Below, in pieces: positions 3,252 to 40,708 of a stretch of DNA of 64,000 bases (positions within the stretch are counted from its first letter, which is position 1; each line of letters begins with the position of its first letter). The translations under genes were made by a program, and so were the position numbers. The stretch is from Escherichia coli (GTDB lineage Bacteria; Pseudomonadota; Gammaproteobacteria; Enterobacterales; Enterobacteriaceae): the NCBI RefSeq assembly GCF_003018235.1, contig NZ_CP027437.1. The stretch is one strand, 5' to 3'. Under the pieces are notes generated by a model. It was not told where the DNA came from, did not search any database, and saw only the letters and a list, made by a program, of their open reading frames with translations.

Positions 3252-3425
3252 CAAAATTACCTTTACATGAAAAATAGACACAAATGCTGTGTCGGTTACC
3301 AGTACACCAATTGTGGTACGCTTTGTCCAGTGCAACTTTACTAAAAAGTGATAAAAGTCGCGTTATTTTTGATGTTAATTATTTTACTCATTGATTTTAA
3401 AGAGTTTACTAAAATTTCATTTGTC

Positions 3426-3986: not shown

Positions 3987-4473
3987 TTGTGACCATAAAA
4001 CATTTATCAAAAATCTACTACTAGCATAGCAAAGCTACAATTAACATAACCTTAATAGCCCCAACATAAAGAACAATCTGAATAGCTGCTCTATTTATTT
4101 CCGCTTGTTTAAGTTAAATATTTCCGCGCATCGATTAAAGATGATGCGTCGTTTTCTGCGATGGGAATAGTCAAAAAAGAAAAACCAAGTCTTTTTTGAT
4201 GACAAAATGCAACCAAGAAAAAATTACTTTATTTTTTAATGAGATACAAAAAAAATTCCTTAACGAAAAATATATTATATATCGTCAACCCATGATCATG
4301 GTAGATTATTTTTTGAGCGCACACCCGCGGCTAACACCATTGCAATTAACAAATTTGCATCAATCCACCATCAATTTACACACATTATTATGTGATAATT
4401 GCCAACCGCTAAATATGCGTTTTGTTATCTATGTATAAAAACAGCAACTTCAATGTCTTAATGGCAGTTTTTC

Positions 4474-4487
4474 TTGATTTTAATCAG
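4474..4487 (+). promoter_or_regulatory. Putative FNR box upstream of dcuC
   Basis: TTGAT-TTTA-ATCAG, near-consensus TTGATnnnnATCAA, about 90 bp upstream of the dcuC ATG; dcuC is known to be anaerobically induced. Confidence 0.4.
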
Positions 4488-4576
4488 CATTCACCGCCAA
4501 TTTATTGGGCATATTTTTTCCTTAAGCTTTAGGAATTTTTTATTATTTACTTTGGGGCCTGGAGACAGGAAAAATT

Positions 4577-8310: not shown

Positions 8311-8689
8311 TGTTTTCCTTGCGGGTTGTCCCGAGCCTCTTTGACGAATGTAATTAAAATGTTGAATCAAAATACATAGATATTAAATATAATCGTGGCA
8401 AATTTTATTCATTAAATCAATTAAATCACTTAAAACTGCGGGTCATTTCGTAATTACATTAATTAAAAAACTTAAAACCATTAAATAAATAAAAAACCAC
8501 TAACTCTATGTGAAATAAATCAAAATTTCACGCTGCAATACTCCTTAGGATGTATAGCGAAAGGAGAAAAAGATATACCTCGATCGCCCCCCTTTCTCCC
8601 AAGTAAAAATAAAAGGTTATCAGTTTGCAACATCGAACAACATTCGTTGCAAATCGATAACAACATGCACCTTCAGGATACTATTTATT

Positions 8690-9748
8690 ATGTTCGGCAA
8701 TGATATTTTCACCCGTGTAAAACGTTCAGAAAATAAAAAAATGGCGGAAATCGCCCAATTCCTGCATGAAAATGATTTGAGCGTTGACACCACAGTCGAA
8801 GTATTTATTACCGTAACCCGCGATGAAAAGCTTATCGCGTGCGGTGGAATTGCCGGAAATATTATTAAATGCGTTGCTATCAGTGAATCCGTTCGCGGTG
8901 AAGGACTGGCGCTGACATTAGCCACCGAGCTAATTAACCTCGCCTATGAGCGGCACAGCACGCATCTGTTTATTTATACCAAAACCGAATACGAGGCGCT
9001 GTTCCGCCAGTGCGGTTTTTCCACGCTGACCAGCGTACCCGGCGTGATGGTGCTGATGGAAAACAGCGCCACGCGACTGAAACGCTATGCCGAATCGCTG
9101 AAAAAATTTCGTCATCCAGGGAACAAGATTGGCTGCATTGTGATGAACGCCAATCCCTTTACGAATGGTCACCGTTATCTGATTCAACAGGCTGCAGCAC
9201 AGTGCGACTGGTTGCATCTGTTTTTAGTTAAAGAAGATTCTTCACGCTTTCCCTATGAAGACCGGCTGGATCTGGTGTTAAAAGGCACCGCCGATATTCC
9301 ACGCCTGACTGTGCATCGCGGCTCCGAATACATCATCTCCCGCGCTACGTTCCCTTGCTACTTCATTAAAGAACAGAGCGTCATTAACCATTGTTACACC
9401 GAAATTGATCTGAAGATTTTCCGTCAGTACCTCGCTCCCGCGCTGGGTGTAACTCACCGCTTTGTCGGTACTGAACCCTTTTGTCGCGTTACCGCCCAGT
9501 ACAACCAGGATATGCGCTACTGGCTGGAAACGCCGACTATCTCCGCACCGCCCATCGAACTGGTTGAAATTGAGCGGCTGCGTTACCAGGAGATGCCGAT
9601 ATCCGCTTCCCGGGTACGTCAACTGCTGGCGAAAAACGATCTCACGGCTATCGCGCCGCTGGTCCCTGCAGTCACGCTGCATTATTTGCAGAACCTGCTT
9701 GAGCACTCCCGCCAGGACGCGGCAGCTCGTCAAAAGACCCCCGCATGA
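8690..9748 (+). CDS. citC: [Citrate (pro-3S)-lyase] ligase CitC
   Basis: 352-aa ORF, full-length CitC match. Confidence 0.93.
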   Translation: MFGNDIFTRVKRSENKKMAEIAQFLHENDLSVDTTVEVFITVTRDEKLIACGGIAGNIIKCVAISESVRGEGLALTLATELINLAYERHSTHLFIYTKTEYEALFRQCGFSTLTSVPGVMVLMENSATRLKRYAESLKKFRHPGNKIGCIVMNANPFTNGHRYLIQQAAAQCDWLHLFLVKEDSSRFPYEDRLDLVLKGTADIPRLTVHRGSEYIISRATFPCYFIKEQSVINHCYTEIDLKIFRQYLAPALGVTHRFVGTEPFCRVTAQYNQDMRYWLETPTISAPPIELVEIERLRYQEMPISASRVRQLLAKNDLTAIAPLVPAVTLHYLQNLLEHSRQDAAARQKTPA

Positions 9749-10059: not shown

Positions 10060-10964
10060 TTTCCGCTTCGCTGCAACAACGTAAAACTCGCACCCGCCGC
10101 AGCATGTTGTTTGTGCCTGGTGCCAATGCCGCGATGGTCAGCAACTCCTTCATCTACCCGGCTGATGCCCTGATGTTTGACCTCGAAGACTCCGTGGCTT
10201 TGCGTGAAAAAGACACCGCCCGCCGCATGGTTTACCACGCGCTGCAACATCCGCTGTATCGCGATATTGAAACCATTGTGCGTGTCAACGCGCTGGATTC
10301 CGAATGGGGTGTCAACGACCTGGAAGCCGTCGTTCGCGGTGGTGCGGACGTTGTGCGTCTGCCGAAAACCGATACCGCTCAGGATGTTCTGGATATCGAA
10401 AAAGAGATCCTGCGTATCGAAAAAGCCTGTGGTCGTGAACCCGGCAGCACCGGCCTGCTGGCGGCGATTGAATCTCCGCTGGGGATTACCCGCGCAGTGG
10501 AAATCGCTCACGCTTCCGAGCGTTTGATCGGTATCGCCCTCGGTGCAGAAGACTATGTGCGCAACCTGCGTACAGAACGCTCCCCGGAAGGAACTGAACT
10601 GCTGTTCGCTCGCTGCTCCATTTTGCAGGCCGCGCGCTCTGCGGGTATTCAGGCGTTCGATACCGTCTATTCCGACGCTAACAACGAAGCCGGATTCCTG
10701 CAAGAAGCCGCCCACATCAAACAGCTGGGCTTTGACGGCAAATCGCTGATCAACCCGCGTCAGATTGATCTGCTGCACAACCTCTACGCACCGACCCAGA
10801 AAGAAGTGGATCACGCCCGCCGCGTCGTAGAAGCCGCTGAAGCCGCCGCTCGCGAAGGCCTCGGCGTAGTTTCCCTGAACGGCAAGATGGTGGACGGTCC
10901 GGTTATCGATCGCGCCCGTCTGGTGCTCTCCCGCGCAGAACTTTCCGGCATCCGCGAAGAATAA
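10056..10964 (+). CDS. citE: Citrate lyase beta subunit (citryl-ACP lyase) CitE
   Basis: Trimmed to the ATG at 10056 ([10 protein letters not shown]...), 302 aa; ATGA overlap with the citD stop. Confidence 0.93.
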
Positions 10965-10974
10965 GGCAATCAAA

Positions 10975-12507
10975 ATGACGCAGAAAATTGAACAATCTCA
11001 ACGACAAGAACGGGTAGCGGCCTGGAATCGTCGCGCTGAATGCGATCTTGCCGCTTTCCAGAACTCGCCAAAGCAAACCTACCAGGCTGAAAAAGCGCGC
11101 GATCGCAAACTGTGCGCCAACCTGGAAGAAGCGATTCGTCGCTCTGGTTTACAGGACGGCATGACGGTTTCCTTCCATCACGCTTTCCGTGGCGGTGACC
11201 TGACCGTCAATATGGTGATGGACGTCATCGCGAAGATGGGCTTTAAAAACCTGACTCTGGCCTCCAGCTCCCTGAGTGATTGCCATGCGCCGCTGGTAGA
11301 ACACATTCGCCAGGGCGTGGTTACCCGCATTTATACCTCTGGCCTGCGCGGTCCACTGGCGGAAGAAATCTCCCGTGGTCTGCTGGCGGAACCGGTGCAA
11401 ATCCACTCTCACGGCGGACGTGTGCATCTGGTACAGAGCGGCGAACTGAATATCGACGTGGCTTTCCTCGGCGTCCCGTCCTGTGATGAATTCGGCAATG
11501 CCAACGGCTACACCGGTAAAGCCTGCTGCGGCTCCCTCGGCTATGCAATGGTTGATGCCGACAACGCGAAACAGGTTGTGATGCTCACTGAAGAACTGCT
11601 GCCTTATCCGCATAATCCGGCAAGCATTGAGCAAGATCAGGTTGATCTGATCGTCAAAGTTGATCGCGTTGGCGATGCCGCGAAAATCGGCGCTGGCGCG
11701 ACCCGTATGACCACTAACCCGCGCGAACTGCTTATTGCCCGTAGCGCTGCGGATGTGATTGTCAACTCTGGCTACTTCAAAGAAGGTTTCTCCATGCAGA
11801 CCGGCACCGGCGGCGCATCGCTGGCGGTAACCCGTTTCCTGGAAGACAAAATGCGTAGCCGCGATATTCGCGCCGACTTCGCCCTTGGCGGTATTACCGC
11901 AACGATGGTTGATCTGCACGAAAAAGGGCTGATCCGCAAACTGCTGGATGTACAGAGCTTTGACAGCCACGCTGCACAATCGCTGGCCCGTAACCCCAAT
12001 CACATCGAAATCAGCGCCAACCAGTACGCTAACTGGGGTTCAAAAGGCGCATCGGTTGATCGTCTCGACGTGGTGGTACTGAGCGCGCTGGAAATTGACA
12101 CCCAGTTCAACGTTAACGTGCTGACCGGCTCTGACGGCGTACTGCGTGGTGCTTCCGGTGGTCACTGCGATACCGCGATTGCCTCTGCGCTTTCCATCAT
12201 CGTCGCGCCGCTGGTACGCGGTCGTATTCCGACTCTGGTGGATAACGTGCTGACCTGCATCACCCCGGGCTCCAGTGTCGATATTCTGGTCACTGACCAC
12301 GGTATCGCAGTTAACCCGGCACGTCCGGAGCTGGCAGAACGTCTGCAGGAAGCGGGGATCAAAGTGGTTTCTATTGAGTGGCTGCGTGAACGTGCGCGTC
12401 TGCTGACCGGTGAACCACAGCCGATTGAATTCACCGACCGCGTCGTTGCCGTTGTGCGTTACCGCGATGGCTCGGTGATCGATGTTGTGCATCAGGTGAA
12501 GGAATAA
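10975..12507 (+). CDS. citF: Citrate lyase alpha subunit (citrate CoA-transferase) CitF
   Basis: 510-aa ORF, full-length CitF match. Confidence 0.95.
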   Translation: MTQKIEQSQRQERVAAWNRRAECDLAAFQNSPKQTYQAEKARDRKLCANLEEAIRRSGLQDGMTVSFHHAFRGGDLTVNMVMDVIAKMGFKNLTLASSSLSDCHAPLVEHIRQGVVTRIYTSGLRGPLAEEISRGLLAEPVQIHSHGGRVHLVQSGELNIDVAFLGVPSCDEFGNANGYTGKACCGSLGYAMVDADNAKQVVMLTEELLPYPHNPASIEQDQVDLIVKVDRVGDAAKIGAGATRMTTNPRELLIARSAADVIVNSGYFKEGFSMQTGTGGASLAVTRFLEDKMRSRDIRADFALGGITATMVDLHEKGLIRKLLDVQSFDSHAAQSLARNPNHIEISANQYANWGSKGASVDRLDVVVLSALEIDTQFNVNVLTGSDGVLRGASGGHCDTAIASALSIIVAPLVRGRIPTLVDNVLTCITPGSSVDILVTDHGIAVNPARPELAERLQEAGIKVVSIEWLRERARLLTGEPQPIEFTDRVVAVVRYRDGSVIDVVHQVKE

Positions 12508-16989: not shown

Positions 16990-17024
16990 TCCCATCTGCA
17001 CAAGCGATAACTCGCTTTGCCCAG

Positions 17025-17049
17025 AGGATGCACTCGCATCCTCTTTCCG
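17025..17049 (+). terminator. Probable terminator after rnk
   Basis: gaggatgcactcgcatcctc hairpin followed by tttcc. Confidence 0.4.
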
Positions 17050-17131
17050 CTCAAATATCAACCAGATTTATCATTTTGCTCTTAAGCGCAGCATTCTAAT
17101 CTGAACTGGTTATTCATCTGCGGAACCTCAT

Positions 17132-17221
17132 ATGAGCGAAGCTCTCGGTATCACTGCATTTTATATATTCATAGCAGCAATTATTGTTGCTGCAGTGCTA
17201 TACCTTGAACAACGCTGGTAG
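17132..17221 (+). CDS. Hypothetical 29-aa single-transmembrane small protein (unverified)
   Basis: ATG..TAG ORF MSEALGITAFYIFIAAIIVAAVLYLEQRW with a 19-residue hydrophobic core flanked by charged residues; weak GGAA Shine-Dalgarno 6 nt upstream. Below the ORF-track size cutoff. Confidence 0.25.
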   Translation: MSEALGITAFYIFIAAIIVAAVLYLEQRW

Positions 17222-17344
17222 CGCCTGGTTTTATTTATTTTCCAGCTCAATAGCAAATTCAGATCAAATCAGCCTCGCAAATCATAGATTCATAACCAAT
17301 AATGTGCTGTTATGTATACATGCAAAAACAAGGAGAGAATGCTT

Positions 17345-17893: not shown

Positions 17894-19459
17894 TTATGCA
17901 GTTTTGGTGCGAATCAGGTAGTCAAAAGCACTCAGAGAGGCTTTGGCACCTTCGCCAGTGGCGATGATGATCTGCTTGTACGGAACCGTCGTACAGTCAC
18001 CCGCTGCGAACACGCCTTTCACGTTGGTTTCGCATTTCGCATCAATGATAATCTCGCCCATGCGGTTACGTTCGACTGCGCCTTCGAGCCAGTTGGTGTT
18101 CGGCAGCAGACCAATCTGCACGAAAATACCGGCCAGTTCGATGTTGTGAATATCGCCGCTGACACGATCTCGATATTCCAGACCTACGACTTTGCTACCG
18201 TCGCCTTTCACTTCCGTGGTTTGCGCATTCAGAATAATGTCGACGTTTTTCAGGCTGCGCAGTTTGTCCTGCAGAACCTGGTCGGCTTTCATTTCTGGCG
18301 CAAATTCCAGCAGCGTTACGTGCTCAACGATACCCGCCAGGTCAATTGCCGCTTCCACGCCGGAGTTACCGCCGCCGATAACCGCTACGCGTTTACCTTT
18401 AAACAGCGGGCCGTCGCAGTGCGGGCAGTAGGTCACGCCTTTGGTGCGATACTGATCTTCGCCCGGAACGTTCATGTTGCGCCATTTTGCACCGGTCGCC
18501 ACGATAATGCTGCGTGCTTTCAGTACCGCGCCAGAAGCTGTTTCAATCTGATGCAGGCCACCTTCAACCGCTGCCGGGATCAGTTTGCTGGCGCTCTGGC
18601 TGTCGATCACATCAACGTCGTATTCATCAACGTGAACTTTCAGCGCACCTGCCAGTTTCTGGCCTTCGGTCTTCGGTACAGAAATGTAGTTTTCGATATC
18701 AACGGTATCGAGGATCTGACCACCAAAACGTTCGCCCATCAAACCAGTACGGATACCTTTACGTGCGGAGTAAATTGCTGCCGCTGCACCCGCCGGGCCG
18801 GAACCGACGATTAATACGTCATAAGCATCACGCTTGTTCAGCTCTTCTGCCGCACGTTTTTCCGCGCCAGTATCAATTTTGGCGACGATTTCAGTCAACG
18901 TCATGCGACCCTGACCAAACTCTTTCCCGTTTACGAACACTGCCGGAACGCCCATCACGTTGCGATCGGTGATTTCGTTCTGGAAGGTGCCGCCGTCAAT
19001 TGCAGTGTGCTTGATGCGCGGGTTCAGTACGCTCATCAGATTCAGCGCCTGCACCACATCCGGGCAGTTGTGGCAAGAGAGCGAGTAATAGGTTTCGAAT
19101 TCAAAATCACCGTCAATATGGCGAATCTGCTCCAGCAGAGACTGCGCTTCTTTCGACGGATGACCACCGGTCCACAACAACGCCAGTACCAGCGAGGTAA
19201 ACTCGTGGCCCAGCGGGGAACCTGCAAAACGTGGCCCCTGGTTGGAACCTGGGTTAGTGATCAGGAAAGACGGCTTACGCACCGGCAAGCTGTTATCTTC
19301 TTTAAAGGTGACTTTGTCTGACAGTTCTGCGATTTCAGCCAACAGTTCCTTGATTTCTGCCGATTTAGCGCTGTCATCCAGCGTGGCAATTAACTCAACA
19401 GGCTTGGTCAATTTCTCAAGGTAAGCCTTGAGTTGAGTTTTCATATTTGTGTCGAGCAT
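17894..19459 (-). CDS. ahpF: Alkyl hydroperoxide reductase subunit F (flavoprotein)
   Basis: Trimmed to [16 protein letters not shown]... (521 aa); CxxC redox centres and FAD/NAD motifs; AGGAG Shine-Dalgarno. Confidence 0.96.
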
Positions 19460-19483: not shown

Positions 19484-19615
19484 CATCATGCAAGCGGCCT
19501 CTGCGGCTACCTGGATGCAGCTTGCATCATGGTGCGGGGAAGAAAATCGGGTGCCGCAGCACCCGAAGAATTAGGTGAATTTCCGAAGTATTTCGCGCCG
19601 GAGTTGGTAGCGCGA
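19484..19615 (-). promoter_or_regulatory. Structured ahpC-ahpF intergenic region (partial terminator/attenuator)
   Basis: Long imperfect inverted repeat catcatgcaagc...gcttgcatcatg plus a second hairpin cgcgccggagttggtagcgcg between the ahpC stop and ahpF start. Confidence 0.4.
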
Positions 19616-19629
19616 AAGACGAAGGAAAT

Positions 19630-20193
19630 TTAGATTTTACCAACCAGGTCCAGAGACGGAGCCAGAGTTGCTTCACCTTCTTTCCATTTAGCCGGGCAAA
19701 CTTCACCTGGGTGAGAAGCTACGTACTGTGCTGCTTTGATTTTACGCAGCAGGTCAGACGCGTCACGGCCAATGCCTTCAGCGGTAACTTCGATTGCCTG
19801 GATGATACCCTGCGGGTCAACAACGAAGGTCGCACGGTCAGCCAGACCTTCATCTTCACGCATGTTGTCGAAGTTACGGGTCAGGGCGCCAGTCGGGTCG
19901 CCGATCATCGCATATTTGATTTTAGCGATGGTTTCAGAGCTGCTGTGCCATGCTTTGTGGGTGAAGTGAGTATCGGTAGATACTGCGTATACGTCTACGC
20001 CCAGTTTCTGCAGTTCTTCGTAGTGGTCAGCAACGTCACCCAGTTCGGTCGGGCATACGAAAGTAAAGTCAGCCGGGTAGAAGAAGAAGACGCTCCAGCG
20101 GCCTTCGGTATCTTTTTCGGTGATTTCGATGAATTCGCCGTTTTTGAATGCCTGGTTTTTAAAAGGTTTAATTTTGGTGTTAATCAAGGACAT
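19630..20193 (-). CDS. ahpC: Alkyl hydroperoxide reductase subunit C (peroxiredoxin)
   Basis: 187-aa ORF with peroxidatic FTFVCPTE and resolving Cys motifs. Confidence 0.97.
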
Positions 20194-20564
20194 CTATACT
20201 TCCTCCGTGTTTTCGATGAGATGTAAGGTAACCAATTTTTGCCGATTCGGCTAATGCGTTTCCATTATCAAATCGATAAGTTTTACCTTACAACCTTCGT
20301 AAGACAACTTTGTGAACTTTGCACCGCCAGCGGCGATAAAAAGTAAAATGGCCCCCTTTCCAGGTGACCGTGTAATCTGAACTACCCTTTGGTATCTTCA
20401 GCGCCTGCCTGCAGGCTGAGGTGTTGCCCTTACAAATGCAACAACGACATGGATTACAACACCCTCATAAACAAAGGGCAATCACCTGATCTAAGCTCTT
20501 ACCTATGACAGTGATAGGTTATGCCTTTTACCCGACTTTTGCACTGACTGAAAAGGACAAATTA
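20194..20564. promoter_or_regulatory. Divergent ahpC/dsbG promoter region (OxyR-regulated by established knowledge)
   Basis: 371-bp intergenic region between divergent ahpC and dsbG; no OxyR site could be pinpointed by eye. Confidence 0.35.
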
Positions 20565-21311
20565 ATGTTAAAAAAGATACTTTTACTGGCTCTGCTTCCT
20601 GCAATCGCCTTCGCAGAGGAACTTCCTGATCCAGTAAAAGCGATTGAAAAACAGGGCATTACAATCATCAAAACGTTCGATGCTCCCGGAGGAATGAAAG
20701 GTTATCTCGGCAAGTATCAGGATATGGGCGTCACCATCTACCTGACTCCAGATGGTAAGCACGCTATCTCCGGTTACATGTACAACGAGAAAGGTGAAAA
20801 CCTGAGTAACACACTTATCGAAAAAGAAATTTACGCACCAGCCGGGCGCGAAATGTGGCAACGGATGGAACAATCCCACTGGCTCCTCGACGGTAAAAAA
20901 GACGCGCCGGTCATTGTCTACGTCTTCGCCGATCCGTTCTGCCCATATTGTAAACAGTTCTGGCAGCAGGCTCGCCCGTGGGTTGATTCTGGCAAAGTGC
21001 AATTAAGAACATTGTTGGTTGGCGTTATCAAGCCAGAAAGCCCGGCGACAGCAGCGGCAATTCTTGCCTCCAAAGATCCCGCAAAAACCTGGCAAGAATA
21101 TGAAGCCTCTGGTGGCAAGCTTAAGCTAAACGTGCCTGCAAACGTAAGTACAGAGCAAATGAAAGTGTTAAGCGACAACGAGAAACTGATGGACGATCTG
21201 GGGGCAAATGTCACACCAGCTATCTACTACATGAGTAAGGAAAATACGCTGCAACAGGCCGTGGGGTTGCCCGATCAGAAAACGCTTAATATCATTATGG
21301 GGAATAAATAA
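20565..21311 (+). CDS. dsbG: Periplasmic disulfide isomerase/chaperone DsbG
   Basis: Trimmed to [17 protein letters not shown]... (248 aa); thioredoxin-fold CPYC active site. Confidence 0.93.
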
Positions 21312-21518
21312 AAGATAATTCATGGATGGTTGAAATATATCCCTGTTTTTCAACCATCCTAAAAAAGCATGAATTGCTCGCTCTGCCCTAAGTGGCTGTG
21401 CTATTTTAGAAAAACTTAATTCTGAGTTAAGCAAAAAAATATAATACAAATAAATACAACAGCAACATTATTGAACAAATGAATGATTTATAGAAGAGAT
21501 AATATAACGGAGTATGTT

Positions 21519-22421
21519 ATGGCGAATCTTTATGACCTAAAAAAATTTGATCTGAATTTACTGGTCATATTTGAGTGCATTTATCAACACCTCAGCATTA
21601 GCAAAGCAGCAGAATCATTATATATAACGCCCTCTGCTGTTAGTCAGTCGTTACAACGTTTACGCGCGCAATTTAATGACCCGTTATTCATCCGCTCAGG
21701 GAAAGGTATCGCGCCGACTACGACAGGGTTAAACCTGCATCACCATCTTGAGAAGAATCTCCGAGGCCTTGAACAAACGATCAATATTGTTAATAAGTCT
21801 GAGCTAAAGAAAAATTTTATTATCTACGGTCCTCAGCTTATTTCTTGTACTAATAACAACATGCTAATCTGCTGTCTTAGACAAGATACTTCAATCGATA
21901 TAGAATGCCATGACATACTGCTTTCAGCTGAAAATGCCGAAGAACTGTTGGTTCAACGCAAAACTGACCTGGCAATTACACTACAACCAGTAATTAGCCG
22001 CTCTGTCATCTGCATGCCGTTACATACTATTCGCAATTCTCTTATATGTAGCAATAAACATCCTCGTATTACCGATACCAGTAACTATGAACAAATTATC
22101 GCCGAAGAATTCACCTTGTTGATATCTAAATCAGCAGGGATTGACGAAATTCAAATGGACATAGATGAACGTTTTATGAACCGTAAAGTTTCATTTCGCA
22201 GTTCTTCTTTGTTGACGATAATTAATAGTATTTCTGTTACTGACTTATTGGGCATTGTGCCCACCGAACTGTACGATTTACATCGTGATTTTTTGAAGTT
22301 ACAAGAGATAAAACTGGAACGACCACTTCCTGCGGTTAAACTTTATATTTCCTATAACAAGGCTTCGTTGAACAACCTTGTCTTCTCACGATTCATAGAT
22401 CGTTTAAATGATAGCTTCTGA
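21519..22421 (+). CDS. ybdO: LysR-family transcriptional regulator YbdO
   Basis: Trimmed to MANLYDLKKFDLNLLVIFECIYQH... (300 aa); N-terminal LysR HTH; gene is conspicuously AT-rich. Confidence 0.85.
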   Translation: MANLYDLKKFDLNLLVIFECIYQHLSISKAAESLYITPSAVSQSLQRLRAQFNDPLFIRSGKGIAPTTTGLNLHHHLEKNLRGLEQTINIVNKSELKKNFIIYGPQLISCTNNNMLICCLRQDTSIDIECHDILLSAENAEELLVQRKTDLAITLQPVISRSVICMPLHTIRNSLICSNKHPRITDTSNYEQIIAEEFTLLISKSAGIDEIQMDIDERFMNRKVSFRSSSLLTIINSISVTDLLGIVPTELYDLHRDFLKLQEIKLERPLPAVKLYISYNKASLNNLVFSRFIDRLNDSF

Positions 22422-22567
22422 TTTATTACCACGGATAAATGTTATATTACGCATCAATTGATTCATTGTGTGAATATAAAATAATGTGCTCTATCTTGCT
22501 TCGTTTACCCTATAATTAACGGATTCATCTCACGAGTCACCCCGTAACGTTCAGAGAGCGTTTTCAG

Positions 22568-23788
22568 ATGTCTATTTATAAAATCCCGCTTCCACTGAAT
22601 ATTCTGGAAGCTGCAAAAGAACGTATTACCTGGACACTTAACACCCTACCCCGCGTCTGCGTTTCTTTTTCGGGTGGTAAAGATTCCGGATTAATGCTGC
22701 ATCTGACCGCCGAACTTGCCCGACAAATGGGCAAAAAAATTTGTGTTTTATTTATCGACTGGGAAGCTCAGTTCTCTTGCACCATTAACTATGTTCAGTC
22801 TCTGCGCGAGTTGTACACCGATGTCATCGAAGAGTTTTACTGGATTGCGCTCCCGCTTACAACGCAAAATTCCCTATCACAATACCAACCCGAATGGCAG
22901 TGCTGGGAACCTGATGTCGAATGGGTACGTCAGCCCCCGCAAGATGCGATAACCGATCCTGACTTTTTCTCCTTTTACCAGCCTGGCATGACCTTCGAAC
23001 AATTTGTGCGTGAGTTTGCCGAATGGTTTTCGCAAAAACGTCCGGCGGCGATGATGATCGGCATCCGTGCGGATGAGTCCTACAACCGTTTTGTCGCCAT
23101 CGCCAGTTTAAATAAACAACGTTTTGCCGATGATAAGCCCTGGACTACTGCCGCACCAGGCGGTCATAGCTGGTACATTTACCCCATCTACGACTGGAAA
23201 GTCGCTGATATCTGGACCTGGTATGCTAGCCATCAACGCCTCTGTAACCCACTGTATAATATAATGTATCAGGCAGGCGTTCCTCTACGTCATATGCGAA
23301 TTTGCGAACCTTTTGGTCCGGAACAACGGCAAGGATTATGGCTCTATCACGTTATCGAACCGGATCGCTGGGCTGCTATGTGCGCACGAGTCAGCGGGGT
23401 AAAAAGTGGCGGCATTTACGCCGGACATGACAACCATTTTTATGGTCATCGGAAAATCCTCAAGCCCGAACATTTAGACTGGCAGGAGTATGCATTATTG
23501 CTACTCAACAGCATGCCGGAGAAAACAGCTGAGCATTATCGCAATAAAATCGCCATTTATTTGCACTGGTATCAGAAAAAAGGCATCGAGGTTCCACAAA
23601 CCCAGCAAGGGGACATTGGCGCGAAAGATATCCCCTCCTGGCGGCGAATATGCAAAGTTTTACTCAATAACGATTACTGGTGTCGGGCATTATCATTTAG
23701 CCCGACCAAAGCGAAGAACTATCAGCGTTATAACGAACGAATAAAAGGAAAACGTCAGGAATGGGGGATACTATGCAACAACGATTAA
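22568..23788 (+). CDS. ybdN: PAPS-reductase-like (PP-loop ATP pyrophosphatase, DndC/IbrA-like) protein YbdN
   Basis: 406-aa ORF with PP-loop SGGKDS at residues 35-40. Confidence 0.88.
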   Translation: MSIYKIPLPLNILEAAKERITWTLNTLPRVCVSFSGGKDSGLMLHLTAELARQMGKKICVLFIDWEAQFSCTINYVQSLRELYTDVIEEFYWIALPLTTQNSLSQYQPEWQCWEPDVEWVRQPPQDAITDPDFFSFYQPGMTFEQFVREFAEWFSQKRPAAMMIGIRADESYNRFVAIASLNKQRFADDKPWTTAAPGGHSWYIYPIYDWKVADIWTWYASHQRLCNPLYNIMYQAGVPLRHMRICEPFGPEQRQGLWLYHVIEPDRWAAMCARVSGVKSGGIYAGHDNHFYGHRKILKPEHLDWQEYALLLLNSMPEKTAEHYRNKIAIYLHWYQKKGIEVPQTQQGDIGAKDIPSWRRICKVLLNNDYWCRALSFSPTKAKNYQRYNERIKGKRQEWGILCNND

Positions 23789-24390
23789 CGCAGGATTTAA
23801 CCCAATTTCTCGCCAGCTTGCCGGAAGACGATCGCATCAAAGCGATTAATGAAATCCGCATGGCGATCCATCAGGTTAGCCCCTTTCGAGAAGAGCCAGT
23901 GGATTGCGTTCTGTGGGTTAAAAACAGCCAACTTATGCCTAATGATTACAACCCAAACAACGTGGCACCACCCGAAAAAAAACTGCTGAAAAAATCCATT
24001 GAAATAGATGGTTTTACCCAACCCATTGTGGTCACGCATACGGATAAAAATGCCCTGGAAATCGTGGATGGTTTTCACCGCCATGAAATTGGTAAAGGCT
24101 CATCATCGTTAAAATTACGCTTAAAAGGTTATTTGCCGGTGACCTGTCTGGAAGGTACGCGTAATCAACGCATCGCCGCGACTATTCGTCATAACCGCGC
24201 TCGTGGACGTCACCAAATCACTGCCATGTCAGAAATCGTCCGTGAACTCAGCCAGTTGGGATGGGACGATAATAAAATTGGCAAAGAGCTGGGAATGGAC
24301 AGCGACGAAGTGCTACGCCTGAAGCAAATTAACGGCCTGCAAGAGTTGTTTGCCGACCGTCAATATTCCCGCGCCTGGACGGTTAAATAG
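23761..24390 (+). CDS. ybdM: ParB/sulfiredoxin-fold (DGQHR/DndB-like, IbrB-like) protein YbdM
   Basis: 209-aa ORF with a DGFHRH motif at residues 103-108; overlaps the ybdN 3' end by 28 nt. Confidence 0.85.
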   Translation: MGDTMQQRLTQDLTQFLASLPEDDRIKAINEIRMAIHQVSPFREEPVDCVLWVKNSQLMPNDYNPNNVAPPEKKLLKKSIEIDGFTQPIVVTHTDKNALEIVDGFHRHEIGKGSSSLKLRLKGYLPVTCLEGTRNQRIAATIRHNRARGRHQITAMSEIVRELSQLGWDDNKIGKELGMDSDEVLRLKQINGLQELFADRQYSRAWTVK

Positions 24391-25551
24391 CTAAAGCTGG
24401 CGCAGGCGTTCAGCTGCTGCCAGCAACGTCGATTCCTTCTTGGCAAAACAGAGACGAATCAGTTTATGTGGGAAGGGATCGGCGCAAAACACCGATAGCG
24501 GAATCGCCGCTACGCCGTGCTCCTGCGTCAGCCACTGGCAAAACTCAACGTCATCCAGGGTAGATACGGCGCTGTAATCCACCAGCAAAAAGTATGTACC
24601 TTCGCACGGTAAAATCTCCAGCCGGCTTTCATTTAAGGCATTCACCAGAATATCGCGCTTCTGGCGATAAAAGTCCGGTAACGCAAGATAATGCTCAGGT
24701 TCTGCACGTAGCATATCGGCAAGCGCCAGCTGTGCCGGGGTATTCACCGAAAAGGTCAGATACTGATGTACCTTGCGAATTTCGGCACTGATGGGCGCTG
24801 GCGCAACGCAATAACCCACTTTCCAGCCGGTCATATGATAGGTCTTGCCAAACGATGACACCGCCACCGCCCGCTCACGCAGCTGCGGATGCGCCTGCAC
24901 GCTGGCATGGCCCTGTTGTGAAAAGTTGATGTGCTCGTAAACTTCATCGCTAATGACAAAAATCTCGTGCCCGGCAATTGCCTGCCACAAAGCGGCGAAA
25001 TCAGCCTGCTGCCAGACAGTTGCACTGGGGTTATGCGGGGTGTTGAGGATCACCAGTCGGGTGCGCTCGCTTAACAATGCGGCAAATTCCTGCCAGTCCA
25101 CGCGAAAATGCGGTGGTTGCAGTGCAATACGTTTCACTATTCCCCCCGAAAGCGCGATGGCGGGCGCGTAACTGTCATAGCTGGGATCAAAGCAGATCAC
25201 TTCATCACCATTGCGCACCAATGCGGTAATCGCTGCATATAACGCTTCCGTCGCCCCTGCCGTTACGGTGATATCACTATCGGCATCCGGTTGATAGCCA
25301 TACAGACGTTCCGTTTTCTGAGCAATCGCCTCGCGCAAGGCCTGCACGCCAGTCATAGGCGCGTATTGGTTTGCCCCCTGGTCAACATGGTACGCCAGCC
25401 GCTCCTGCAAATAGCGCGGACCATCAAAATCAGGAAAGCCTTGCGAAAGGTTAATCGCCTGGTGTTGCTGCGCCAGCGCGCTCATCTGGGTGAAAATAGT
25501 GGTGCCAAGTTGTGGAAGTTTGCTTTGTGGAATCAGAGGGTTATTTGTCAT
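24391..25551 (-). CDS. ybdL: PLP-dependent methionine aminotransferase YbdL
   Basis: 386-aa ORF, class I/II aminotransferase, matches YbdL. Confidence 0.92.
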   Translation of the reverse strand: MTNNPLIPQSKLPQLGTTIFTQMSALAQQHQAINLSQGFPDFDGPRYLQERLAYHVDQGANQYAPMTGVQALREAIAQKTERLYGYQPDADSDITVTAGATEALYAAITALVRNGDEVICFDPSYDSYAPAIALSGGIVKRIALQPPHFRVDWQEFAALLSERTRLVILNTPHNPSATVWQQADFAALWQAIAGHEIFVISDEVYEHINFSQQGHASVQAHPQLRERAVAVSSFGKTYHMTGWKVGYCVAPAPISAEIRKVHQYLTFSVNTPAQLALADMLRAEPEHYLALPDFYRQKRDILVNALNESRLEILPCEGTYFLLVDYSAVSTLDDVEFCQWLTQEHGVAAIPLSVFCADPFPHKLIRLCFAKKESTLLAAAERLRQL

Positions 25552-25658
25552 TTTTTATTGTGCCTGACGAAGTTGTGTTGAAGGCACTATAACACGATGC
25601 TAGTATTTGGCGATCAAGACGTTTAGATGTCTAAATAAAACAATAAGGACAACACAAC

Positions 25659-26747
25659 ATGCCTCACAATCCTATCCGCGTGGTCGTCGGCCCGGCTAAC
25701 TACTTTTCACATCCCGGCAGTCTCAATCACCTGCACGATTTTTTCACTGATGAACAACTTTCTCGCGCGGTGTGGATCTACGGCGAACGCGCCATTGCTG
25801 CGGCGCAAACAAAACTTCCGCCAGCGTTTGAACTGCCAGGGGCAAAGCATATTTTGTTTCGCGGCCATTGCAGCGAAAGCGATGTACAACAACTGGCGGC
25901 TGAGTCCGGTGACGATCGCAGCGTGGTGATTGGCGTCGGCGGCGGCGCACTGCTCGACACCGCGAAAGCCCTCGCCCGCCGTCTCGGTCTGCCGTTTGTT
26001 GCCGTTCCGACGATCGCCGCCACCTGCGCCGCCTGGACACCGCTCTCCGTCTGGTATAACGATGCCGGACAGGCGCTGCATTATGAGATTTTCGACGACG
26101 CCAATTTTATGGTGCTGGTGGAGCCAGAGATTATCCTCAATGCGCCGCAAGAATATCTGCTGGCGGGGATCGGTGACACGCTGGCGAAATGGTATGAAGC
26201 GGTGGTGCTGGCCCCGCAACCAGAAACGTTGCCGCTAACCGTGCGACTGGGGATCAATAATGCGCAGGCCATTCGCGACGTCTTGTTAAACAGTAGCGAA
26301 CAGGCGCTTGCCGATCAGCAAAATCACCAGTTAACGCAATCATTTTGCGATGTGGTGGATGCGATTATCGCCGGAGGTGGAATGGTCGGTGGTCTGGGCG
26401 ATCGTTTTACGCGTGTGGCGGCGGCCCATGCCGTGCATAACGGTCTGACCGTGCTGCCGCAAACCGAGAAGTTTCTTCACGGCACCAAAGTCGCCTACGG
26501 AATTCTGGTGCAAAGCGCCTTGCTGGGTCAGGATGATGTGCTGGCGCAATTAACAGAGGCGTATCAGCGTTTTCATCTGCCGACTACGCTGGCGGAGCTG
26601 GAAGTGGATATCAATAATCAGGCGGAGATCGACAAAGTGATTGCCCACACCTTGCGCCCGGTGGAATCCATTCATTACCTGCCGGTCACGCTGACACCGG
26701 ATACGTTGCGTGCAGCGTTCGAAAAAGTGGAATCGTTTAAAGCCTGA
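25659..26747 (+). CDS. ybdH: Iron-containing alcohol/glycerol-dehydrogenase-family hydroxycarboxylate dehydrogenase
   Basis: 362-aa ORF, matches YbdH. Confidence 0.9.
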   Translation: MPHNPIRVVVGPANYFSHPGSLNHLHDFFTDEQLSRAVWIYGERAIAAAQTKLPPAFELPGAKHILFRGHCSESDVQQLAAESGDDRSVVIGVGGGALLDTAKALARRLGLPFVAVPTIAATCAAWTPLSVWYNDAGQALHYEIFDDANFMVLVEPEIILNAPQEYLLAGIGDTLAKWYEAVVLAPQPETLPLTVRLGINNAQAIRDVLLNSSEQALADQQNHQLTQSFCDVVDAIIAGGGMVGGLGDRFTRVAAAHAVHNGLTVLPQTEKFLHGTKVAYGILVQSALLGQDDVLAQLTEAYQRFHLPTTLAELEVDINNQAEIDKVIAHTLRPVESIHYLPVTLTPDTLRAAFEKVESFKA

Positions 26748-26756
26748 CGTACATAT

Positions 26757-26954
26757 TTAGCAGCAGCGCGCGCCGCCTTTTCCACCGTAGCGCGCGTCCT
26801 GCCGCTCACGGAAAAACTCCTCGTAGGTCATCGGCGTTTGATCGGGATGGTTAACCCGCATATGTTCGACATAGTTGTCGTAATCAGGCATACCAATCAT
26901 CAGTTTCGCCGCCTGACCTAAATATTTTCCGGCTTTTGCCAGTGAATCAAACAT
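26757..26954 (-). CDS. ybdD: Small protein YbdD (DUF466), cstA-associated
   Basis: 65-aa [35 protein letters not shown]... immediately downstream of cstA. Confidence 0.88.
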
Positions 26955-26973
26955 CTAAACCTCCGGTAATACA

Positions 26974-27066: not shown

Positions 27067-29039
27067 TTAGTGCGCGCCTTTCGCCTGCGCCACGATCTCT
27101 TCGACATTTTCCGGCATCGGCTCATATGGCGTTTCTTTCGCCGTTGGCTTCGGCTCTTTCAATGCCGCCAGTGCCGTCTTAATCGAGAACAGCGCCAGAA
27201 CCACCACGACCACCATAAAGAAGATGGTTAACCCGGCATCAAGACGGTTGTTGAATACCAGTTGCGCCAGCTGTGACTCAGTATACTGCGACGGAATATT
27301 GCCGCTGTCGATCATTGCCTGGAACTTATTAGCAATCGCCTGGAAGCCGACTTTCGCATCCGGGCTAAACGCTTTCTGCCAGCCTGCGGTCAGGGTACAA
27401 ATCAGCAGCCAGGCCGTTGGTACCAGCGCCACCCAGGCGTAACGTTGACGTTTCATTTTGAACAGCACCACAGCACAGAGCATCAGCGCCATCCCTGCCA
27501 GCATCTGGTTGGCAATACCAAACAGCGGCCACAAGGTGTTAATACCGCCCAGCGGATCGACCACACCCTGATGGAGGAAGTAGCCCCACGCCAGTACGCA
27601 CAGCGCCGTTGCCAGCAGGTTAGCAGGCAGTGAATCGGTCCGTTTCAGGCCCGGAGACACCACGCCCAGCAGATCCTGCAACATAAAGCGCGCAGCACGC
27701 GTACCTGCATCCACCGCCGTCAGAATAAACAGTGCTTCAAACAAAATGGCGAAGTGATACCAGAACGCCACATCCATCATGCCGCCCAGCGCGCCGTGCA
27801 GAATGTAGGCCATCCCCACCGCCAGCGTCGGCGCACCGCCCGCACGGGAAATGATCGACTGTTCACCCACTTCGCTGGCAATCTGGTTGAGCGTATCTGG
27901 TGTAATGCTAAATCCCCAGCTACTCACCACCTGCGCGGCAGAAGCAACCACATCCGCCGTACCTGCCGGAGCCAGCACCGCCATCGGGCTGTTCATAGCG
28001 AAGTACACACCCGGATCGATGATACAGGCGGAAACCAGCGCCATAATCGCTACGAAGGATTCCATTAACATCCCGCCGTAGCCGATAAAACACGCCTGCC
28101 CTTCGTTCGCCAGCATCTTCGGCGTGGTACCGGAAGAGATCAGCGCATGGAAGCCAGACACCGCGCCACAAGCGATGGTGATAAACAGGAACGGGAACAG
28201 GTTACCGGTCCATACCGGGCCTGTGCCATCGACAAATTTAGTTAGCGCAGGCATGGTCAGCGTCGGGCGCATAATCAAAATGCCTACCGCCAGACCGACG
28301 ATAGTCCCGATTTTCAGGAAGGTTGAGAGGTAGTCACGCGGAGCCAGCAGCAGCCACACCGGCAGCACCGCCGCCACAAAACCGTAACCCACCAGCATCC
28401 AGGTCAGCTGCACGCCGGTAAAGTCAAAGTACGGTGCCCAGGTCGGGCTTTCTGCCACCCAGCCGCCAGAGATAATGGCGAAAATCAGGAACACCAGACC
28501 AATCACCGACACTTCGCCAATACGCCCCGGACGCAGATAACGCAGGTAGATCCCCATAAACAGCGCCAGCGGAATGGTGAACGCAACGGTATACGTTCCC
28601 CACGGGCTATGGGTCAGGGCTTTCACCACGATCATCGCCAGCACGGCAAGGATAATGACCATGATCATAAAGCAGGCCACCAGCGCAATCACCCCGGCAG
28701 GTAACCCATTTGCGCCGCCAGCACCGGCCCCACCAGCGGGCCTGCTCCGGCAATGGCCGCAAAATGGTGACCGAACAGCACTTTTTTGTCCGTCGGCACA
28801 TAGTCCAGCCCGTCGTTATGGCGCACCGCTGGCGTCATACGCGTCGGGTCAACCGCCAGCACATTTTTGGCGATATACAGGCCATAAAAACGGTAAGCGA
28901 TCAGATAGATACAGACCGACGCCACCACAATCCACAGCGCGTTGATCTGTTCCCCACGATTTAAAGCAATGTATCCCAGAGCAAATGCTCCCATTACAGA
29001 GAGCACTGTCCAGACGAGGTATTTCCCTGATTTGTTCAT
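27067..29039 (-). pseudogene. cstA: Carbon-starvation peptide/pyruvate transporter CstA, interrupted by frameshift/internal deletion
   Basis: The CstA N-terminus (116 aa ending ...AAQMGYLPG) stops at a TGA at 28689-28691; the remainder (541 aa from VIALVACFMIMV...) resumes in another frame from 28692. The sum (657 aa) is about 44 aa short of the roughly 701 aa I recall for CstA. Confidence 0.7.
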
Positions 29040-40693: not shown

Positions 40694-40708
40694 ATAGATA
40701 ATATAAAT

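Follow-up and report, generated by a model that had tools for sequence, protein, structure and literature searches.

The AT-rich ybdO (citR) locus of Escherichia coli: probably an old, H-NS-silenced resident with a history of allelic replacement

Introduction

What does it mean when a single gene is far richer in A and T than the core genes that surround it? In the 64-kb stretch of Escherichia coli DNA analyzed here (the window, by which we mean this whole stretch of 64,000 nucleotides), the question is raised by ybdO, also named citR. A preliminary description had read the composition of this gene as the signature of horizontally acquired, H-NS-silenced DNA and had suggested that ybdO, ybdN, and ybdM were acquired together, with ybdO possibly regulating the other two. 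Silencing of ybdO by H-NS and a link between CitR and ybdNM are already published biology. What is new here is a conserved, putative TTAA-N7-TTAA operator over the ybdO -10/start site and the evidence for allelic replacement.

Results

The DNA between the dsbG stop and ybdN, running from the first base past that stop (21311) to the last base ahead of the ybdN start (22568), has a GC content of 36.3% at 21312-22567, compared to 51.9% for the whole 64-kb window. When the 64 kb was scanned with sliding 1256-bp windows, GC averaged 51.9% (sd 4.7). The lowest value, 35.5%, belongs to the sliding window that starts at 21273; equally low values occur in 0.18% of these windows, each of which overlaps the ybdO tract. 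In 100-bp windows, the AT-rich tract spans 21250-22800 with 21312-22567 as its core (22-47% GC inside, at least 49% outside), extends ~230 bp into the 5' part of ybdN, and falls to 22-31% at 21400-21599. This tract and the recombination tract described below carry no strand; all other features given with coordinates are on the + strand.

Within the tract, ybdO itself has a GC content of 38.0% (GC1/2/3 of 44.2/32.6/37.2%) and ranks lowest among 53 genes (GC z = -3.5; GC3 z = -3.3), while its neighbors are at 47.4% (dsbG), 47.2% (ybdN), 47.1% (ybdM), and 54.0% (ybdL). The intergenic regions on either side have 29.5% GC (promoter side) and 35.6% (ybdN side), values that taken alone are ordinary, given a span of 30-55% among the window's remaining intergenic stretches. 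Codon usage in ybdO is atypical as well, in that ATA is chosen for 29% of isoleucine residues against a window mean of 5% (z = 3.65) and CTG accounts for 19% of Leu codons vs. a mean of 52%; CTG likewise makes up 19% of Leu codons in ybdN. Karlin's B statistic does not set ybdO apart from the other genes (z = 0.96), owing to its noise in short genes; GC3 and the fractions of single codons did discriminate. The visual impression of a sharply AT-rich ybdO with AT-rich flanks was therefore accurate, in windowed GC as well as in codon usage, and the AT-richness takes in the promoter as well as the 5' end of the coding sequence, as looked for in an H-NS-silenced locus.

Is this composition a sign of recent arrival? 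The gene order ahpCF-(dsbG)-ybdO-ybdN-ybdM-ybdL is common to at least 12 enterobacterial genera, including, among the matches listed, Citrobacter, Salmonella diarizonae, Enterobacter, Lelliottia, Klebsiella, Raoultella, Kluyvera, Pluralibacter, Pseudocitrobacter, Superficieibacter, and Leclercia. Of 5426 E. coli genomes, 5356 have the locus. Outside E. coli, 38 loci were recovered among the matches listed, a sample drawn from species other than, among others, E. fergusonii and S. enterica, and ybdO sits at the shared position in each of them. Among these same matches, ybdO is the lowest-GC gene at 38 of 39 loci, and at 32 loci its GC3 follows that of its flanks (r = 0.85) with a slope of 1.00 and an offset of -0.148 (sd 0.041), i.e., the deficit is constant over a range of host GC3 of ~0.55-0.78. 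Such a constant offset across hosts points to an equilibrium and not to a gene still drifting to host composition. No tRNA was found in 10000-35000, and the annotation from citT to entE includes neither an integrase nor an IS element. The locus thus displays neither a patchy distribution among the matches listed, nor mobility signatures at its borders, nor a composition shifting towards that of the host, the features by which genomic islands are recognized.

These findings bear directly on the idea that ybdO, or a ybdO-ybdN-ybdM island, was recently acquired from an AT-rich donor, has kept its unadjusted composition, and is silenced by H-NS as foreign DNA. The low GC and GC3 of ybdO and its odd codon usage, milder in ybdN, are what this idea predicts, and YbdN and YbdM are probably paralogous to the island-borne IbrA and IbrB. 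The gene has also been termed horizontally transferred (PMC4720273, PMC9141747). However, its identical position in at least 12 genera means that any acquisition must precede their divergence, and the GC3 deficit stays the same, with a slope of 1.00, while the hosts among the matches listed vary. There are no mobility genes or tRNA close by, and in AT content ybdN and ybdM do not exceed the core gene dsbG. Moreover, among the matches listed, five lineages retain ybdO adjoining ybdL without ybdNM (two Leclercia species, Raoultella terrigena, UBA7338, and ESNIH1). We therefore consider a recent import very improbable. AT-richness does not serve as a mark of recent acquisition at this locus, and joint acquisition of the three genes is unsupported, given the 47% GC of ybdN and ybdM, which resembles that of dsbG, and the lineages lacking the pair. 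Instead, the AT-richness of ybdO is probably a stable, locus-specific property predating the divergence of the enterobacterial genera.

What the gene encodes is clear from its domains. Gene coordinates were transferred by BLAST from strain 042, which matches the window at 100% over dsbG-citR-ybdN-ybdM-ybdL and at 95-100%, with indels, outside 19610-26970. The ybdO/citR gene (21519-22421) encodes a 300-aa LysR-type regulator, assigned by Pfam, by NCBIfam NF047710, and by the RefSeq annotation citR. It has an N-terminal helix-turn-helix (PF00126, HTH_1, residues 12-70, 67.8 bits vs. a 26.6-bit cut-off) and an effector domain (PF03466, LysR_substrate, residues 137-298, 40.1 bits vs. a 28-bit cut-off), and its nearest solved structures are LysR-type transcriptional regulators (LTTRs) of the DntR type. 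The CitR equivalog NF047710 is matched with 451.1 bits (cut-off 400 bits), and the NCBIfam runner-up, YbeF, reaches 166 bits vs. a 277-bit cut-off.

Upstream lies dsbG (20565-21311; annotation from strain 042 at 100% identity), the last ~45 bp of which fall within a published H-NS repression element. After its stop, a perfect 12-bp inverted repeat (GGATGGTTGAAA ... TTTCAACCATCC) can be read off the sequence at 21324-21359. It is probably the hairpin at the end of the dsbG transcript, although no T-run follows; its stems are the same across five Escherichia alleles and its loop is variable. A terminator scan of 21100-22800 returned no intrinsic terminator, this hairpin included, and the sole Rfam match is again the hairpin, under threshold. 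The ybdO promoter (21402-21414) comprises a -10 element, TATTTT, at 21402-21407, invariant across five aligned Escherichia alleles, and a start site at ~21412-21414; in K-12, SE11, and SE15, transcription starts at -107/-106 from the start codon (PMC4720273).

Overlapping this promoter, we identified a putative LysR-type operator at 21405-21431, with half-sites TTTAG (21405-09), CTTAA (21415-19), and TTAAG (21427-31) at 11-bp spacing. The dyad CTTAA-N7-TTAAG (21415-21431) includes a T-N11-A motif, so that the predicted operator has the form expected of an LTTR at its own promoter, and the candidate site covers +3 to +19 as well as part of the -10 element. A TTAA-N7-TTAA box (at most one mismatch, between -135 and -81) is present at 30 of 39 loci among the matches listed, vs. 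3.9 expected by shuffling. Published ChIP-exo data place a YbdO peak ahead of citR, and the single predicted CitR site listed is at ybdO (PMC9068703). We infer that this peak corresponds to the TTAA operator predicted here. YbdO would then bind three half-sites, including the T-N11-A dyad over its own -10/start site, and repress its own transcription.

The part of the preliminary description that concerned H-NS agrees with published occupancy, reporter fusions, EMSA, and derepression in other E. coli strains (PMC4720273, PMC9141747). ChAP-seq places H-NS on ybdO in K-12, SE11, and SE15, with expression going up in an hns mutant, and deletion mapping in the same strains showed that repression by H-NS requires an upstream and a downstream element, URE and DRE (PMC4720273). 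In E. coli K1, H-NS shifts the ybdO promoter in EMSA, hns deletion leads to 2.2-2.4-fold derepression, and acid pH relieves H-NS at ybdO (PMC9141747). Converting the published coordinates from the ybdO start codon at 21519, we placed by homology the URE (-250 to -176) at 21269-21343 and the DRE (+27 to +164; PMC4720273), which is inside the coding sequence, at 21545-21682. The DRE region encodes the same protein as in K-12, yet its DNA is merely 74-82% identical. Matches to the 10-bp high-affinity H-NS motif TCGATAAATT with at most two mismatches are uninformative, with 60 in the window vs. 60.2 expected.

By analogy with these strains, the window allele is presumably silenced by H-NS as well. 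The AT-rich ybdO DNA would act as an H-NS nucleation site, with H-NS binding the 3' end of dsbG, upstream of the promoter, and the first ~55 codons of ybdO. The promoter would be almost off until the H-NS filament is relieved, be it in stationary phase, at acid pH, or in cells lacking hns. Could the AT-richness instead be a mere by-product of low expression and of a protein rich in Asn, Lys, Ile, Leu, and Ser, with no role in silencing? GC1 and GC2 of ybdO are low, the fraction of G/A/R/P residues in YbdO is the minimum among the 53 genes, and the weakly expressed neighbors dsbG and ybdN are also poor in CTG. However, GC3 and both noncoding flanks are low too, and two alleles that are 21% apart in DNA have nevertheless kept a similar GC (38.0% vs. 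38.6%). Since H-NS binding and hns-dependent repression have been shown experimentally (PMC4720273, PMC9141747), we give this by-product explanation hardly any credence.

As had been described, ybdO sits directly upstream of ybdN-ybdM on the same strand, with a spacer of 146 bp (22422-22567; 35.6% GC) that contains a -10-like TATAAT (22511-22516) and a leader. This TATAAT and the 5' leader ahead of ybdN are kept in five Escherichia alleles, and the spacer is unalignable between genera. The first gene, ybdN (22568-23788), is IbrA-like, with a PAPS-reductase domain and DUF3440 (PF01507, 55.1 bits; PF11922, 112.3 bits; both above cut-offs). It overlaps by 28 nt with ybdM (23761-24390), which is IbrB-like and annotated by RefSeq as "IbrB-like domain-containing," with a candidate ParB N-terminal-like domain whose Pfam ParB_N match of 24.6 bits is slightly below the 26.3-bit cut-off. 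PADLOC assigned none of YbdO, YbdN, and YbdM to a defense system, giving only marginal DndC and BrxP domain matches. A literature search on ybdN, ybdM, IbrB, and DUF3440 found no functional study besides PMC9068703. According to that study, which used the K-12-type allele only, ybdN is up by log2 5.5 and ybdM by log2 2.5 in the RNA-seq of a citR deletion mutant, and CitR is reported to repress ybdNM and to influence citCDEF, hence its name (PMC9068703).

The suggestion that ybdO may regulate ybdNM thus stands as far as both genes rise in the citR mutant; direct control of the ybdN promoter is unproven. Because there is no terminator between ybdO and ybdN and the predicted operator lies at ybdO, the RNA-seq result could also stem from read-through or from polarity of the deletion, so that the response of ybdNM could be a polar artifact, direct repression, or read-through. 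Direct repression of the ybdN promoter from the spacer, with ybdNM as a dedicated target operon of CitR, would account for the magnitude of the RNA-seq response (PMC9068703), for the trio staying together in most genera among the matches listed, and for the conservation of the TATAAT and leader within Escherichia. It fits less well with the ChIP-exo peak being upstream of citR and the sole listed predicted site at ybdO (PMC9068703). TTAA-N7-TTAA boxes in the spacer are not enriched among the matches listed (8 of 32 loci vs. 10.9 expected), where the spacer does not align between genera, and ybdO is kept in lineages without ybdNM. With no terminator in between, read-through from the derepressed promoter or from a cassette-borne one is equally simple, and we regard direct repression as possible but doubtful. 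We favor the alternative that ybdN-ybdM have a weak promoter of their own but are expressed mainly from transcription starting at, or crossing, the ybdO region that H-NS silences.

Within E. coli, the locus exists in different alleles. Compared with K-12, the window has 5 differences in 21252-21445 and becomes densely different from 21446 to ~22771, within ybdN. Difference density and third codon positions in ybdN delimit a recombination tract at 21446-22771 that is sharply divergent from the K-12-type allele. Nucleotide identity to K-12, 94-100% in the flanks, drops to 79% in ybdO and to 70% in the ybdO-ybdN spacer. The two YbdO proteins are 88% identical, the first 110 residues being the same and 35 of 35 substitutions falling in the effector-binding domain. 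Divergence was measured by four-fold-site counts (d4) in place of NG86 pS, since pS values of 0.73-0.9, which had appeared to be "above saturation," are an artifact of two-fold-site counting in an AT-rich gene. For the window vs. K-12, d4 is 0.99 in ybdO and 0.11-0.26 in the flanks; vs. a second Escherichia species (L042), 0.51 and 0.33-0.58; and vs. p11B, 0.14 and 0.02-0.21. In a tree of ybdO, the window groups with p11B and L042, with K-12 outside, while in the flank tree the three E. coli strains group together with L042 outside. Each of these conflicting topologies has a bootstrap of ~100%, which argues for allelic replacement.

Among the 5356 complete E. coli genomes with a match, ~459 carry the window type (at least 95% identity), ~1318 a close variant (~94%), and ~3553 the K-12-type allele (~79% identity to the window). 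The window allele is itself mosaic, its promoter segment (21252-21445) being K-12-like and its coding sequence B2-like. This allele would fit the Escherichia species tree, and most other E. coli, K-12 included, would carry a replacement allele acquired via homologous recombination over ~1.3 kb. That the K-12 type is the imported one is suggested on grounds of parsimony. A search among 5.8 billion proteins for a donor of the K-12-type allele returned nothing at 89-98% protein identity, the nearest relative being another E. coli allele, the third one (P0012, locus L047).

In-place decay or hypermutation is one reading of the statement that "H-NS facilitates sequence diversification." Under it, H-NS silence would relax selection or raise AT-biased mutation, and the tract would drift to AT and diverge fast where it stands. 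Consistent with this, ybdO is within the top 50 E. coli orthologs by substitution rate (PMC4720273), and for most close pairs, family-wide, YbdO proteins are 5-26 times as distant as YbdL + AhpF. However, dN/dS in ybdO is 0.025, equal to that of the flanks, and all alleles examined have an uninterrupted frame of 300 aa. Where the trees agree, no raised rate is seen (d4 of 0.14 to p11B and 0.51 to L042), and the distance ratios are bimodal (~1.5-2 or 5-26), not evenly high. Together with the sharp breakpoint at 21446 and topologies in conflict at ~100% bootstrap, these observations speak for replacement events, and in-place decay appears unlikely.

Across Escherichia and Citrobacter, the DNA-binding domain is 82-100% conserved, and the effector domain 44-66% outside coli-type alleles. 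Two individual comparisons may be recorded here: the K-12 and window types are at a d4 of ~1.0 within one species, and two Citrobacter species with 1.8% protein divergence in the flanks differ by 32% in YbdO. We tentatively raise the possibility, which we think more likely wrong than right, that ybdO is a family-wide hypervariable "allele cassette," in which the DNA-binding domain and operator are frozen and the effector domain exists in deep, swapped lineages. The conserved flanks, dsbG/ahpC on one side and ybdN on the other, would then be the borders between which homologous recombination exchanges these lineages.

Discussion

Taken together, these findings are best explained, and with good confidence, by a citR locus in which silencing by H-NS, autorepression, read-through into ybdNM, old residence, and allele replacement are combined. 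Low GC at ybdO does not date its acquisition, since the deficit is constant across hosts with GC3 of ~0.55-0.78, and the equation of AT-rich with recently horizontal would mislabel ybdO and probably further old H-NS targets. The high "substitution rate" of ybdO, a showcase of H-NS-driven diversification, is here mainly allelic replacement, which affects a published inference. Functional work on YbdO spans the K-12, K1, and APEC alleles, whose effector domains are up to 18% apart, and results may not transfer between them. If the cassette idea were true, AT-richness and H-NS silencing would make swaps tolerable, or be selected themselves, E. coli phylogroups would carry regulators with different signal responses, and this could account for ybdO promoting virulence in K1 but attenuating it in APEC.

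How does this locus compare with known systems? The ibrA-ibrB genes are regulators of the Eib immunoglobulin-binding proteins, and YbdN/YbdM are probably paralogs of this island-borne pair. The arrangement looks alike, with a PAPS-reductase/DUF3440 gene (ybdN) followed by an overlapping, putatively ParB-like gene (ybdM), but ybdNM are at a conserved chromosomal position and not in a prophage-like island. Genomic islands such as Salmonella SPI-1 and SPI-2 are the standard case of xenogeneic silencing, in the Navarre/Lucchini model. Like them, ybdO is AT-rich relative to its host, has atypical codon usage, and, in the literature on other strains, is bound and repressed by H-NS. Unlike them, it has, among the matches listed, no restricted distribution and a constant composition offset, and it is one 0.9-kb gene amid core genes without mobility genes or a tRNA/attachment-site junction.

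A further parallel is provided by leuO, bgl, and proU, which are AT-rich loci conserved across Enterobacteriaceae and silenced by H-NS bound to either side of the promoter. Within the LysR regulators, LeuO belongs to the same sub-branch as YbdO and is its next NCBIfam match after YbeF; at 98 bits vs. a 262-bit LeuO cut-off, YbdO is not its ortholog, and YbdO is not known to antagonize H-NS. The URE/DRE pair of ybdO has itself been likened to the H-NS elements of bgl and proU (PMC4720273). Finally, the gene in the window is the same as ybdO/citR (b0603) of K-12, SE11, SE15, K1, and APEC, with the same position and neighbors (PMC4720273, PMC9141747, PMC11681634, PMC9068703). Its length of 300 aa, its -10 element, the region around its start site, and the predicted operator are those of b0603; it differs from K-12 citR in that the window has the other major allele.

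A sharply AT-rich tract at ybdO

The interval 21312–22567 spans precisely the distance from the dsbG stop codon to the ybdN start codon. Over 5.2 kb around ybdO, the window shows 100.0% identity (rounded) to E. coli 042 (NC_017626.1), in which RefSeq names the matching block dsbG, citR (the new name of ybdO), ybdN, ybdM, and ybdL. The window is not strain 042 itself, since identity elsewhere is 95–100%, with indels. Gene coordinates were transferred from 042 by BLAST: ahpF (17894–19459) and ahpC (19630–20193) on the minus strand, dsbG (20565–21311), ybdO (21519–22421), ybdN (22568–23788), and ybdM (23761–24390) on the plus strand, and ybdL (24391–25551) on the minus strand. YbdO consists of LysR HTH_1 and LysR substrate-binding domains and passes the NCBIfam CitR equivalog (451 bits, cut-off 400), the next families, YbeF and LeuO, both being subthreshold. 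YbdN has a PAPS-reductase domain and DUF3440, and YbdM is ParB-N–like, with a score slightly below the Pfam cut-off.

The preliminary description of ybdO and its flanks as sharply AT-rich was borne out by windowed GC, which is 36.3% in 21312–22567 vs. 51.9% window-wide, with the lowest 1,256-bp stretch of the 64 kb falling in the dsbG–ybdN interval. In 100-bp windows, the low-GC tract extends over ~21250–22800. With 38.0% GC (z = −3.5) and 37.2% GC3 (z = −3.3), ybdO is the lowest among 53 genes; the spacers on either side have 29.5 and 35.6%, while dsbG, ybdN, and ybdM have 47.1–47.4% and ybdL 54%. Codon usage, the other check proposed, is likewise atypical in ybdO (ATA is 29% of Ile, CTG 19% of Leu), and YbdO is the poorest of the 53 proteins in G/A/R/P residues. 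The other GC minima of the window, at 3339–4594 (pagP–dcuC spacer, 31.7% over 590 bp), 8005–9260 (dpiB–citC spacer, 31.4%), and 39518–40773 (fepE, 44.6%), are possible additional targets of H-NS.

Elsewhere in the window, cstA (27067–29039, minus strand) looks disrupted, with ORFs of 541 and 116 residues and not one of 701; compared to 042, the gene lacks nucleotides 367–471, and its two BLAST pieces share a 28-bp overlap. At ~16990–17344, rnk and uspG are only a 355-bp spacer apart; K-12 and ET120 carry ybdR, a zinc alcohol dehydrogenase gene, in the gap from yldA to uspG, and 042 lacks it. The hokE region (49416–50811) contains a unit of ~390–470 bp three times in tandem, and 042 has two annotated hokE copies.

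Conservation of the locus across genera

The low GC had been taken as a sign of horizontally acquired DNA, with ybdO and ybdNM suggested to have arrived together; read as recent, joint acquisition, this proved wrong. We surveyed the family using one genome per species, which yielded at least 40 loci. Among the loci listed, the order ahpF-ahpC-(dsbG)-ybdO-ybdN-ybdM-ybdL is kept in Citrobacter, Salmonella diarizonae, Enterobacter, Lelliottia, Klebsiella, Raoultella, Kluyvera, Pluralibacter, Pseudocitrobacter, and Superficieibacter, and ybdO adjoins ybdL without ybdNM in Leclercia (two species), R. terrigena, UBA7338, and "Escherichia sp. ESNIH1." In 38 of 39 of these loci, ybdO is the lowest-GC gene (mean 43.7%, vs. 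51.5% for ybdN and 57.9% for ybdL). Since its GC3 follows that of the flanks one-for-one with a fixed deficit (r = 0.85, slope 1.00, offset −0.148, SD 0.041), ybdO composition is at a locus-specific equilibrium, under forces that presumably keep the tract AT-rich, and is not that of a foreign gene drifting to host composition. No tRNA (10000–35000) or mobility gene (annotation from citT to entE) flanks ybdO. On conserved order, constant GC3 offset, and lack of such genes, recent acquisition is rejected. Joint acquisition has no compositional support, as ybdN and ybdM have a GC like that of dsbG, although ybdN has part of the atypical codon usage and the trio is usually together across the loci listed.

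The database names of two of these sequences seem to be mistaken. With 47% identity in YbdO and 85–91% in the flanks, "Escherichia sp. ESNIH1" is not a true Escherichia. E. coli K-12–type ybdO–ybdN (99% identity for YbdN) on a contig from a "Bacteroides sp." metagenome-assembled genome is probably contamination.

Divergence of ybdO points to allelic replacement

The AT-rich tract coincides with a hyperdivergent block. DNA identity between the window and K-12 is 79% in ybdO and 70% in the ybdO–ybdN spacer, vs. 96–100% in ahpC, dsbG, ybdM, and ybdL. The left edge is sharp, with five differences in 21252–21445 and dense differences from 21446; the right edge is gradual, inside ybdN at ~22771. The YbdO proteins are 88% identical, residues 1–110 being unchanged and every change falling in the effector domain. 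At four-fold sites, 54.8% differ in ybdO (four-fold-site divergence, d4, of 0.99), compared to ~10–12% in the flanks, and dN/dS is 0.025, the same as in the flanks. Despite 21% divergence, the two alleles have nearly equal GC (38.0 and 38.6%). Among 5,356 matching complete E. coli genomes, classified by identity to the window allele, ~459 have the window type (≥95%), ~1,318 a ~94% variant, ~3,553 the K-12 type (~79%), and 26 show 80–90% identity.

The substitution rate of ybdO is not intrinsically high, because its d4 in the window falls within flank ranges both vs. E. coli p11B (0.14; flanks 0.02–0.21) and vs. L042, an Escherichia genome with flanks 7–16% diverged from E. coli (0.51; flanks 0.33–0.58). 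In a neighbor-joining tree of ybdO, K-12 lies outside the window, p11B, and L042 (bootstrap 100% for nucleotides, 99.8% for protein), whereas in the tree of the flanks L042 lies outside the three E. coli strains (100%). This conflict shows ybdO divergence to be allelic replacement through homologous recombination, and parsimony would make the K-12 type the imported allele. No donor was found among 5.8 billion proteins; what came nearest was a third allele from E. coli (P0012/L047), which forms a mosaic with the K-12 type; the window allele is also mosaic, with a K-12–like promoter segment and a B2-like coding sequence. In the contig carrying the third allele (Logan DRR294271, 6001–8872), the 5′ part of ybdO is K-12–like, whereas identity of the 3′ half to either of the other types is 70–85%. 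There, ybdN is broken into two ORFs, and ybdM has a diverged patch (84–88% identity) corresponding to 23816–24215. In E. coli ET120 (10120–11700), ybdO is truncated after ~36 codons by an IS5-family element, ybdN to fepE are deleted, and the remnant adjoins entF.

Alleles that are deeper still, with 21–29% protein divergence, occur in three further Escherichia lineages, one of them E. albertii, and within Citrobacter a difference of 1.8% between species in flank proteins goes with 32% in YbdO. Family-wide, YbdO/flank divergence ratios are bimodal, ~1.5–2 or 5–26. Higashi et al. reported an unusually high substitution count in ybdO and read it as H-NS–facilitated diversification (PMC4720273); our findings suggest that most ybdO "diversity" at the locus is exchange of old alleles. 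Between Escherichia species (E. albertii L048, and L049), divergence is much greater throughout dsbG-ybdO-ybdN-ybdM than in the adjacent genes. The fast-evolving unit may be larger than ybdO, because d4 in this four-gene block is 0.8–1.0 (2.0 in ybdO) vs. 0.31 in ybdL and 0.08 in ahpC. YbdO is reported to promote virulence in a K1 strain (PMC9141747) and to attenuate it in an APEC strain, an inconsistency remarked by the APEC authors (PMC11681634); neither study considered the strain's own ybdO allele. The deep allelic structure of the YbdO effector domain across Enterobacteriaceae is the thread worth following.

A predicted operator and the link to ybdNM

Published coordinates, once converted, place the ybdO −10 element (TATTTT) at 21402–21407 and the transcription start site at ~21412–21414. 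Three predicted operator half-sites with 11-bp spacing, TTTAG (21405–21409), CTTAA (21415–21419), and TTAAG (21427–21431), overlap the −10 element and +3 to +19. Among the loci listed, 30 of 39, from many genera, have a TTAA-N7-TTAA box (at most one mismatch) equally far from the start codon, vs. 3.9 expected from shuffles, and the remainder of the spacer is highly divergent between loci. The YbdO DNA-binding domain is 82–100% conserved in the Escherichia and Citrobacter proteins compared. Both patterns would fit YbdO autorepression at this operator. Just upstream of the −10 element, an 18-bp patch (21381–21398) in an otherwise conserved promoter occurs in two forms, one common to the window and K-12, the other to p11B and L042, with 12 of 18 positions differing between the window and p11B.

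That ybdO may regulate ybdNM, as had been proposed, is already published: Rodionova et al. 2022, who renamed YbdO CitR, report a ChIP-exo peak upstream of citR and, in a citR mutant, increased ybdN (log2 5.5), ybdM (log2 2.5), and citCDEF (PMC9068703). The rise of ybdNM could reflect direct repression of the ybdN promoter by CitR, and within Escherichia a TATAAT (22511–22516) and leader upstream of ybdN are conserved. However, the ybdO–ybdN spacer shows no box enrichment (8 of 32 loci listed vs. 10.9 expected), no alignment between genera, and no intrinsic terminator in a terminator scan, so that transcription reading through from the region of the ybdO promoter, or polarity of the deletion, would be at least as likely.

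Published H-NS silencing of ybdO

Silencing by H-NS, also part of the preliminary description, has been published for other E. coli strains. Higashi et al. 2016 found that K-12, SE11, and SE15 share H-NS binding upstream of ybdO and over its coding region, mapped the start site at −107/−106, showed derepression in an hns mutant, and found that H-NS–dependent repression requires two elements, one upstream (URE, −250 to −176) and one downstream (DRE, +27 to +164) (PMC4720273), which convert to 21269–21343 and 21545–21682. Fan et al. 2022 showed that H-NS shifts the ybdO promoter in EMSA, that hns deletion derepresses ybdO 2.2–2.4-fold in a K1 strain, and that acid pH relieves repression (PMC9141747). 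After the dsbG stop codon, partly within the URE, lies a perfect 12-bp stem (21324–21359), with invariant arms, a variable loop across five Escherichia alleles, and no T-run after it.

The AT-rich observation is thus real and the mechanism largely right, the tract being ybdO/citR itself, and silencing and ybdNM regulation were already in the literature (PMC4720273, PMC9141747, and PMC9068703). Xenogeneic silencing of a genomic island is a poor model for the tract, which departs from it in distribution, borders, and composition drift, all of which we tested. Its closest analogues in working are leuO, bgl, and proU, which are ancient, AT-rich, and H-NS–silenced, with upstream and downstream H-NS elements; for bgl and proU, the comparison of these elements was drawn by Higashi et al. 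(PMC4720273).
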